From Escherichia coli O157:H7 (GTDB taxonomy: Bacteria; Pseudomonadota; Gammaproteobacteria; Enterobacterales; Enterobacteriaceae), in assembly GCF_013167455.1 (NCBI RefSeq), contig NZ_CP038328.1: a DNA stretch of 64,000 nt. One strand, given 5' to 3'. The first letter of the stretch is position 1. The number at the start of each line of letters is the position of its first letter. Below, in pieces: positions 56,201 to 59,200 of this stretch. The position numbers were made by a program.

Positions 56201-59200
56201 CATCTGTTCAAAACGACGCAGTGCCTCCGGACGGGCATCATCCTCCGTCATGGCACCGAGAAAATCATTCAGCGTACCCGGTTGAGAATCTTCATACACG
56301 GAGATGGTCCCGGCATGTGATGGCGGGAATCCCTCCACCAACAGAGTGACGCTGTACTGACCATACTCGACGTCCATGCTGTAACGCCCTGCCTCATCCG
56401 GATTTTCAGAGGCCACCGTGTTCACCACCACCGTGGTGCTGTTACGTCTGGCTTTCAGTTGAATGGTGCAGTTCTGTATTGGTTTTCCCGCACCATCTTT
56501 CAGCACGCCTGATATTTGTACTGCTGCCATACCCACTCCACAAAAAAGCCCGCCTGAACCGGCGGGCTGTCATAACGCTGTGTTACTAATCAAAATTTAT
56601 AACCGACACCCACGATGAAACCGTCAGTGCGCCAGTCACCGCTGCCGGAGCCTTCATAAGCGACATCAACGGCCACTGATTCGGTCGGGTTAAACTGCAC
56701 GCCAGCCCCCCACGCCAGAGATGTGTTGCTGTAGCGAGCGTCATCACTTCCGGTCAGCACGTCGTGCGTTTTCCTCTTGTTGTCAGTTACGCGGAAATAA
56801 TCCCCGGAAAAAGTCGACACACGGCTGTAAGCCACACCCGCCATCGCATACGCACTGAACCATTCATTCACACGCACAGACGGCCCTGCCATCACGCTGA
56901 ACCAGCGGTTACGCACGTAATCCTCATGCCAGCGGGTATCGCTGTAATGCGTTTTTTGCTCATCTTCGGCGTTGGCATAACTGAAGGACGTAATCAGCCC
57001 CAGTGTGTCCGTAAACTCATAACGGTATTTCACGTTAATCCCGTTCAGATCATCGCTGCCGGGAGCGTCCGTACTGGCATGAAGATATCCTGCGCTCAGC
57101 GTGGACTGATGCTCAGACGCCCATGCAGGCACACCGGATACGGCCAGACAAATGGCTGCGGACAAAATTGCTGCACAAACTTTACGCATAATTACCTCCC
57201 GATTTTCTGCAATAAAAAAGGCGCCATTTCTGGCGCCCGTTATTAGGGTTATAAATATTTCAACGGATACTGATGCCGGAAGCCGCTTTTTTGGTCACAA
57301 TCACCGTACAGTCGGTGATATTACCTGCCCGCTGATTGCCTTTATGGAAAACCTTAAACTCCAGAGTGACGCTTCCCCTGCCACTCGGCATATCAATAAC
57401 CGCACTGTAGCTACCGGGAATGGCCCCTTTAGTTTCTCTGGATGCGATTAATACACCGTTTTTGCGAACTTCAAAACCATAACCCGTGTATCTTGTACCT
57501 CCCGGGTTATTACCACTTCCCGGATCGCTATACGCTATTCCGTTAAAGATAATGGGCGGAATAATGATTTGACGGTCAAAGTTATGATCATCGCTGATGG
57601 TGACTGTAACCGTCCCGTTTGGTGTTTCCGTGTTACCCCACGTACCAGCCTGTTTCGGAAATGATTTGGATACAGCTTTAACGAAGTCACCTCTGACCTG
57701 AGTCGCCTCCAGCATGCCCTTAATCGTACAGTTTTCATTTACCGTGACGTTGTTGAGCGTCCCGGAGTTCGCATTCACACTGCCACTGATATCCGCATTT
57801 TTAGCGGTCAGCTTTCCGTCTGATGTCAGGGAAAATACCGGTGGATTTCCACCGCTGGTAATGGTGGGGGCCGTCAGGCGCTTCAGGAACACGTCGTTCA
57901 TGAATATCTGGTTGCCCTGCGCCACAAACATCGGCGTTTCATTCCCGTTTGCCGGGTCAATAAACGCGATACGATTGGCGGCAACCAGAAACTGGCTCAG
58001 CTTGCCTTCCTCCGTGTCCTCCATGCTGAGGCCAATACCCGCGACATAATGTTTGCCGTCTTTGGTCTGCTCAATTTTGACGCCCCACATGGCATTCCAT
58101 TTATCGTTAGCGTCCTTCCACTCTTTCGAAAACTCATCCAGTCTGCTGGCGTTATCCTCCGTCAGATCGACTTTTTCCAGCAGCTCCTTGCCGAGATGAG
58201 ATTCGGTTATCTTGCCTTTGAAAAAATCCAGATAACCTTCCGCATCATCGCTCGCCCGACCGACGGCCTCCACGAATGCCGATTTGCCAACGGTGTTCAC
58301 ACTGCGGATATAAAAGTAATAATCATGGCCCGGTTTGATATTGATACTGGCGGCTATCCAGTACAGCGCCGTACCAAGATAACGCGCGCTGGTTTCAACC
58401 TGCCTGATATCCGCAATCCGCGTTTCCGAGAACCAGAACTCAAACTGTACCGTCGGATCATAAACCGCAAGATGCGGCGTGGCGGTTATCTGAAAATAGC
58501 CCGGTGTCAGCTCAATCTGTGACGGCGCTGCCGGTGCGGCAATCCGGAACGATACCGACGCCGGATCGCCCTGCTGTCCCCACGCATTTACCGCCCGGAC
58601 TGTCAGCCTGTAGTTCCCCAGCGCCAGCTGCGTGAAGCGGTATGTGGTTTCCGTCGTCCGGGCCGTGCTGACCAGCCGCTCACTGCCGTCATCCGCTGCC
58701 ACGGTCAGGCGAAGCAGGAAGCTCACACCCTTCACCACCTTCGGCGTGTCCCATCGCGCCAGCACCTGATATTCCCCGCTGTCTGCGGAGACTTCGGCGG
58801 TCAGGTGCTGCACCGCTGGCGGCGTGACACCATTCACCGTGCTGCTCTGGTCACCGTCAAAGTGCGCCCCGTTATCCACGATGCCCTCTTTCTCCGGCAC
58901 ATGCTGCACGGCAGTGATGGCATACGTGCCGTCGTCGTTCTCACGGATACTCACGCAGCGGAACAGGCGCTGGCGCAGCGTCGGCAGCTTCAGCCCCCAC
59001 ACGCTGTATTCAGCAACACCGTCAGGAACCCGGCTCACTTTTACCTTCACGCCGTCGGTGACGGACTGAACCTCCACGCTGACCGGATTGCCACTTCCGT
59101 CAACCAGGCTTATCAGCGTGGTGCCGGAGGATGGCAGCGTGATTTCACGGTCGAGCGTCAGCGTCCGGGTCTGGCTGTTCACCGCCAGCACACGCCCACC

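Follow-up and report, generated by a model that had tools for sequence, protein, structure and literature searches.

Exchangeable C-terminal host-range cassettes of the lambdoid J proteins have long been known, and the 434/OmpC allele is the textbook case. The J protein of phage lambda (gpJ; PDB 8xck, 8xcj and 8iyk) binds LamB, and the way in which contact between its receptor-binding domain (RBD) and the porin opens the tail has been described from the lambda structures (PMC11101478). Phage 434 uses OmpC, and lambda in which the 434 tail fibre gene replaces J binds OmpC as well (PMC3509688, PMC11101478). Swapping the C-terminus of gpJ alone retargets engineered lambda particles from LamB to OmpC (the side fibres of these particles are an unrelated chimera; PMC11338833), and the structure of one member of this engineered gpJ set, the A8 chimera, has been solved in complex with OmpC (PDB 9wcb). 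The Stx2a siphophage phi330 also requires OmpC, as established by a Keio knock-out and its complementation (PMC12502783). In Salmonella, the lambda-like J of Gifsy-1 binds OmpC irreversibly through its C-terminal region and triggers ejection, and Gifsy-1 binds OmpX and BtuB in addition. Here we describe the J gene of a prophage of Escherichia coli O157:H7, contained in a 64,000-nucleotide stretch of contig NZ_CP038328.1 (assembly GCF_013167455.1) that we refer to as the window, and compare it with these systems.

A lambda-like J gene with a divergent C-terminus

The J gene is an unbroken ORF of 1137 codons, free of frameshifts and internal stops and equal in length to the J of phage 434 (Table 1), and its counterpart in the genome of E. 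coli O157:H7 TR01, which is 99.3% identical in this region, is annotated as gpJ. Against lambda gpJ (NC_001416, 1132 aa) BLASTP returned 1008 identities over 1142 positions, with homology running the whole length of the protein (hub, FNIII, shaft and fibre regions). Within the tail module, the gene follows M-L-K-I and precedes lom and stf, as seen from the order of the ORFs, the annotation of TR01 and the colinearity with both 434 and lambda. By these comparisons J is the protein of the tail tip and central fibre in a siphophage of the lambda/434 kind, and is predicted to be a trimer.

The similarity to lambda is unevenly distributed along the protein. Residues 1–989 align with lambda gpJ free of gaps and at 96.4% identity (953/989), and by homology would comprise the hub domains, the two FNIII domains, the alpha-helical shaft and the beta-prism fibre (domain names after PMC11101478). 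Residues 990–1137, in contrast, are only 36% identical (55/154), and the alignment is interrupted by four indels. The transition is equally sharp in the DNA: the homology to lambda found by blastn (window positions 60979–57704, 95.1% identity) ends at 57704, and identity in 90-nt windows runs at 84–100% up to nucleotide 2970 of J and at 42–53%, with gaps, thereafter. The four indels fall at lambda residues 1012, 1048–1051, 1078 and 1099–1110, the same sites that were described as the indel hot-spots defining natural J lineages (Maddamsetti et al., PMC6646904). The base composition changes as well, since the RBD has a GC content of 47.7% both in the J of the window and in that of 434, as opposed to 57–58% in the rest of J (57.6% for the body of the gene in the window) and 55% in the RBD of lambda. 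Because the break is abrupt, is accompanied by a shift in GC and comes with indels at known allele-defining sites, the divergent end of J is, judged by its sequence, an exchanged cassette rather than the product of gradual drift or accelerated point divergence.

These results bear on an earlier note on this DNA, made without database searches, which had described about 980 lambda-like residues followed by a diverged end of about 150 residues. The alignment with lambda gpJ agrees with that description: the C-terminus is not conserved with lambda, the lambda sequence on which the note relied was accurate enough, and the peptide quoted there is present as written. The interval given for the divergence (57260–57800) holds for 57260–57703, whereas its upper ~100 nt are still lambda-like.

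Table 1 Features of the J region of the prophage (window positions; all on the minus strand)
Feature	Position	Strand	Description and basis
nleC	52733–53752	-	Type III secretion effector; nleH1-1 and nleD lie further left
nleB2	53786–54766	-	Type III secretion effector
Small gene after stf	54943..55212	-	89 aa; its match in 434 is annotated as a tail fibre assembly chaperone
stf	55214..56536	-	Side tail fibre, ~438–440 aa, second adsorption organelle of the tail; ORF, colinear with the 434 side tail fibre
lom-like gene	56590..57189	-	Outer membrane protein, 199 aa, 434 type, directly downstream of J; ORF, Ail/Lom family in TR01
J	57260..60673	-	Tip attachment protein/central tail fibre; 1137-aa ORF, 88% overall identity to lambda gpJ
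434-type RBD cassette of J	57260..57703	-	aa 990–1137 and stop (148 codons + stop); predicted OmpC binder
Lambda-like body of J	57704..60673	-	aa 1–989; homology to lambda gpJ
Tail-tip genes I, K, L, M	60734..63065	-	Full-length ORFs of 215, 247, 232 and 109 aa, upstream of J

The J C-terminus belongs to the phage 434 class

To place the cassette, the last 150 residues of J were compared with 50,697 phage records by tblastn. The matches were bimodal: identity was at least 90% in 74 records and below 60% in another 168, and no record fell into the gap; as far as these sequences go, J RBDs fall into discrete allele classes and do not form a continuum. The RBD of phi458 is identical to that of the window (100%), followed by those of O157 Stx2c- and Stx1a-converting phages and of Perceval (99.3%), Evi and 2B8 (97.3%), mEp332 (95.3%), and Stx2a_WGPS6 and the classical phage 434 (94.7% each), while lambda reaches 36%.

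We then aligned the last 200 residues of the J of the window with those of 434 (OL657227), lambda h434 imm21 (OM418627), WGPS6, lambda and the A8 gpJ chimera (the sequence of the latter was taken from PDB 9wca). The RBD matches that of 434 at 140 of 148 positions (95%) and is indel-free, and lambda h434 imm21 carries 434 sequence throughout the aligned region. The two full-length proteins, which have the same length and the same breakpoint with respect to lambda, are 97% identical; a codon by codon comparison revealed 33 amino acid differences, eight of them in the RBD (residues 1004, 1008, 1009, 1019, 1049, 1050, 1099 and 1115). Synonymous changes outnumber these eight non-synonymous codon differences in the RBD (25 versus 8), and are in the majority along all of J. 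The high identity along the entire RBD and the common pattern of indels identify the cassette as one of the 434 (h434) type.

The other described classes fit poorly. Relative to lambda, the indels lie at exactly the four loops that insert into LamB (lambda residues ~1012, 1048, 1078 and 1107), which, together with the low identity, sets the RBD apart from the LamB-binding type, and a different receptor is expected. The A8 and phi330 RBDs are 98% identical to each other and 42% identical to the RBD of the window, which places them in a separate allele class, although A8 is the best match in the PDB over the last 200 residues and shares the fold. The related RBD of Fels-1 is 45% identical to that of the window. 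Gifsy-1 J comes from another genus, its C-terminal region is reported to be 18% identical to that of lambda, and its J is set beside ours by description.

Predicted fold and mode of action of the receptor-binding domain

In a phmmer search of the PDB, the last 200 residues of J aligned end to end with A8 gpJ (9wca, E 5e-56) and with lambda gpJ (8xcj and 8iyk, E ~3e-48); no solved structure of a 434-class RBD was found in the PDB search. The AlphaFold2 monomer model, which was generated from a six-sequence alignment, is all-beta; its pLDDT is ~85 for the RBD and poor for the fibre strands ahead of it, which depend on the trimer. Comparison of this model with the PDB by Foldseek retrieved as top matches the lambda closed fibre (8xck), the A8 closed form (9wca), lambda gpJ bound to LamB (8xcj) and A8 bound to the OmpC of EDL933 (9wcb). 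The E-values for gpJ fibres ranged from 4e-16 to 2e-14 (~5e-16 for 8xck and 9wca), while all other matches were at 1e-4 or weaker; the TM score of the monomer model was ~0.6 owing to the badly placed fibre segment. Both searches assign the C-terminal domain of J to the gpJ RBD fold, and as modelled it is a gpJ-type RBD with different loops.

If the mechanism described for lambda applies, residues 1–989 of J, which are essentially those of lambda, would build the tip and relay the signal by which receptor binding opens the tail. The RBD would form a beta-sandwich, and the four distal loops of the RBD trimer would enter a trimeric porin at its extracellular mouth. Binding to the porin would spread the bottoms of the three RBDs, and this movement would travel upward as a twist along the beta-prism fibre and helical shaft, with dissociation of the FNIII strings. 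The hub domains would then open, allowing gpI and gpH, and subsequently the DNA, to exit. Because J is 96% lambda upstream of residue 989, its tail-opening machinery should be unchanged and its docking surface alone different; with a 434-type loop sequence, the porin recognised would most likely be OmpC.

OmpC is the predicted receptor

The best prediction from homology to the 434 class, which we hold with considerable confidence, is that the RBD of J docks OmpC and not LamB. In this sense the analysis supports the suggestion in the earlier note that the receptor is not LamB, and the receptor can be specified as OmpC through the 95% identity to the 434 RBD and the literature on 434 and h434. 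The 434-type allele works in a live phage, since phi458, whose RBD is identical, forms plaques on K-12 MC1061 (PMC9701743). For carriers of the allele a literature survey (phi458, Ayreon, cdtI, mEp332 and the PhiR phages) yielded host information and no receptor assays, and a receptor-prediction preprint from 2026 deals with J loci in Drexlerviridae and relatives, the lambda/434 class being absent from it. Among the observations that count against the OmpC reading, most of the eight differences from 434 lie in or near predicted loops and could alter specificity, and the classes with direct evidence for OmpC from an isolated J swap or a knock-out (A8 and phi330) are only 42% identical to the RBD of the window.

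Two candidate lines of evidence were considered and set aside. Phage phi330 was first considered as direct evidence for the class of the window because the genome nearest to it, WGPS6, carries an RBD 94.7% identical to that of the window; the RBD of phi330 itself, however, is of the A8 class (53% identity over 200 residues, 42% over the RBD), and on sequence grounds the OmpC data for phi330 and A8 are evidence for a sister class only. Phage 21 was rejected as a native user of OmpC, its native receptor being LamB and its use of OmpC an evolved trait.

The position of the substitutions nonetheless raises the question of whether the RBD, while of 434 fold and ancestry, has been shifted by them to another porin, such as OmpF, LamB or certain variants of OmpC (for instance the O157 allele). 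Seven of the eight differences are located in or beside loop segments that bear the class-defining indels, and a few mutations in J are enough for added use of OmpC or OmpF in phage 21 and lambda (PMC6646904, PMC11336670), in which even single J mutations can switch porin use (PMC11336670). Moreover, gpJ chimeras differ in the OmpC variants that they accept: 1A2 works on the OmpC of EDL933 and not on that of MG1655 (PMC11338833). Such a shift appears unlikely to us in view of the natural carriers of the allele, because phi458, with its 100% identical RBD, and Ayreon, which is 97.5% identical over the last 200 residues and was isolated on a K-12 derivative, both grow on K-12 types, so that the allele is not restricted to O157-type surfaces. 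The excess of synonymous over non-synonymous codon differences in the RBD, which is much like that of the rest of J, likewise gives no sign of a jump in specificity.

The assignment of OmpC to the RBD also depends on which of the two adsorption organelles confers it. The h434 hybrid (OM418627, positions 1006–8501) inherited the 434 lom, stf and tfa genes and nleB/nleC-like genes alongside J, and because of the first three the classical h434 host-range marker cannot separate J from the side tail fibre. It could accordingly be argued that 434-type phages owe their OmpC dependence to Stf, which in Ur-lambda does bind OmpC (PMC11338833) and which h434 received together with J, and that the 434-type RBD binds some other molecule. 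We regard this as very improbable. In lambda-type phages it is the J RBD that triggers opening of the tail, while Stf merely speeds adsorption (PMC11338833, PMC11101478), and the complete resistance of OmpC-less cells to 434 points to J because lambda PaPa infects without Stf. The 434-type Stf found here is furthermore short and collagen-like (~438 aa), its match to lambda stf being confined to 545 nt at the 5' end (84% identity), and in two other classes the swap of the J C-terminus alone confers OmpC dependence. OmpC is consequently assigned to the J RBD, since the contact between RBD and porin opens the lambda-type tip and the side fibres are dispensable accelerators.

Prophage context and inducibility

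Window positions 37261–64000 are 99.3% identical to TR01, in which the element is located between ybhC and ybhB/bioA, that is, at att-lambda; this is also the location of 434, and the prophage corresponds to Sp3 of O157 Sakai and CP-933K of EDL933. By blastn, colinearity with 434 extends over window positions 63203–52660 with a nucleotide identity of 92.5%, and positions 51190–49679 reach 99.7% identity to 434. The first of these blocks contains the tail-tip genes I, K, L and M, of which K, L and M have the lengths of the 434 genes, and the lom-like gene, whose 600 nt equal those of its 434 counterpart. The order J-lom-stf-tfa-nleB-nleC-nleH-IS fragment-nleD is common to the window and 434. 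In TR01 the counterpart of stf is annotated as a "prophage tail fiber N-terminal domain-containing protein", and that of the small gene after it as a 270-nt "phage tail fiber C-terminal domain-containing protein" (in 434, a 270-nt "tail fiber assembly chaperone"). The stf ORF contains a long collagen-like Gly-X-Y run with a local GC content of ~62% and a strongly negative AT skew, and its product belongs to the family of prophage collagen-like proteins described for O157.

Several additional features were observed in the region. At the end of the prophage that adjoins ybhB, genes for type III secretion effectors form a cassette (positions 49679–54766), in the same order as in the laboratory phage 434. 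In TR01, an lpxR-like lipid A deacylase gene is found upstream of Q in the prophage. Outside the prophage, between rhlE and dinG, a 670-aa ORF (22161–24173, minus strand) is present where TR01 annotates the type III secretion effector gene espX2. At the Rfam gathering threshold, the window further contains a Moco riboswitch upstream of moaA (39966–40110, minus strand, 104.5 bits) and the nucleoid-associated RNA naRNA4 (17289–17359, plus strand, 78.4 bits).

Phage 434 is live and its effector genes (the nleB and nleH copies) are degraded, whereas the prophage of the window has intact effector genes and appears to be defective. The TR01 prophage (886000–908600) runs from int, xis, exo and a truncated bet directly into ninE-ninF-ninG, N, cI, cro, O and P being gone, and the annotation splits its portal gene in two. 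In Sakai, Sp3 has no repressor or replication functions, and its circularisation, replication and packaging were undetected (Asadulghani et al., PMC2669165). Since the immunity and replication region is absent from a 99.3%-identical genome, the prophage is most likely not inducible, whereas the earlier note had made its prediction of a different host range conditional on inducibility.

The same deletions, the divided portal gene of the 99.3%-identical genome and the lack of excision, replication and packaging in Sakai Sp3 (PMC2669165) could be taken to mean that the RBD segment, as part of a dead prophage, is itself in decay and no longer encodes a working domain. This is hardly credible for J itself, which has kept a full-length ORF equal to that of 434 with no frameshifts or stops, an RBD identical to that of the active phage phi458, and intact adjoining tail-tip genes (M, L, K and I). 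An intact 434-type allele would rather be carried passively in a defective prophage, where it could matter only through recombination with other lambdoid prophages or through their complementation.

Prevalence and significance of the 434-type allele

Finally, the RBD classes were counted in 5426 complete E. coli genomes. DNA encoding the 434-type RBD is present in 2111 of them, in up to seven copies per genome, and the A8/phi330 type in 2784 (~1549 at 90% identity or more). The lambda type is found in 98, and the best five matches listed are laboratory strains, for example DE3 lysogens. Among E. coli genomes, the RBD of lambda is the unusual one. The description of the J tip as "diverged from lambda" is therefore correct in that the C-terminus differs, but misleading as to the process and the direction: a cassette has been exchanged, and the lambda allele is the rare one (98 versus 2111 genomes).

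The 434-type J tip described here is a common and already described allele in an annotated gene of an O157 prophage, and in this respect it is ordinary. One could imagine, and we offer this as an improbable conjecture, that the choice among OmpC variants is tuned by the eight loop-proximal differences from 434, and that the intact J of Sp3 acts as a recombination reservoir from which inducible Stx phages of the same cell, such as the Stx1a and Stx2c phages with their near-identical RBDs, receive this domain. In E. coli at large, the 434-type and A8/phi330-type RBDs each occur in ~40–50% of complete genomes, with the LamB class of lambda nearly confined to laboratory lysogens. This prevalence, together with the lack of a 434-class structure among the matches of the PDB search, matters for delivery vectors built on phages and for predicting the transfer routes of those Stx1a and Stx2c phages in which this RBD occurs.
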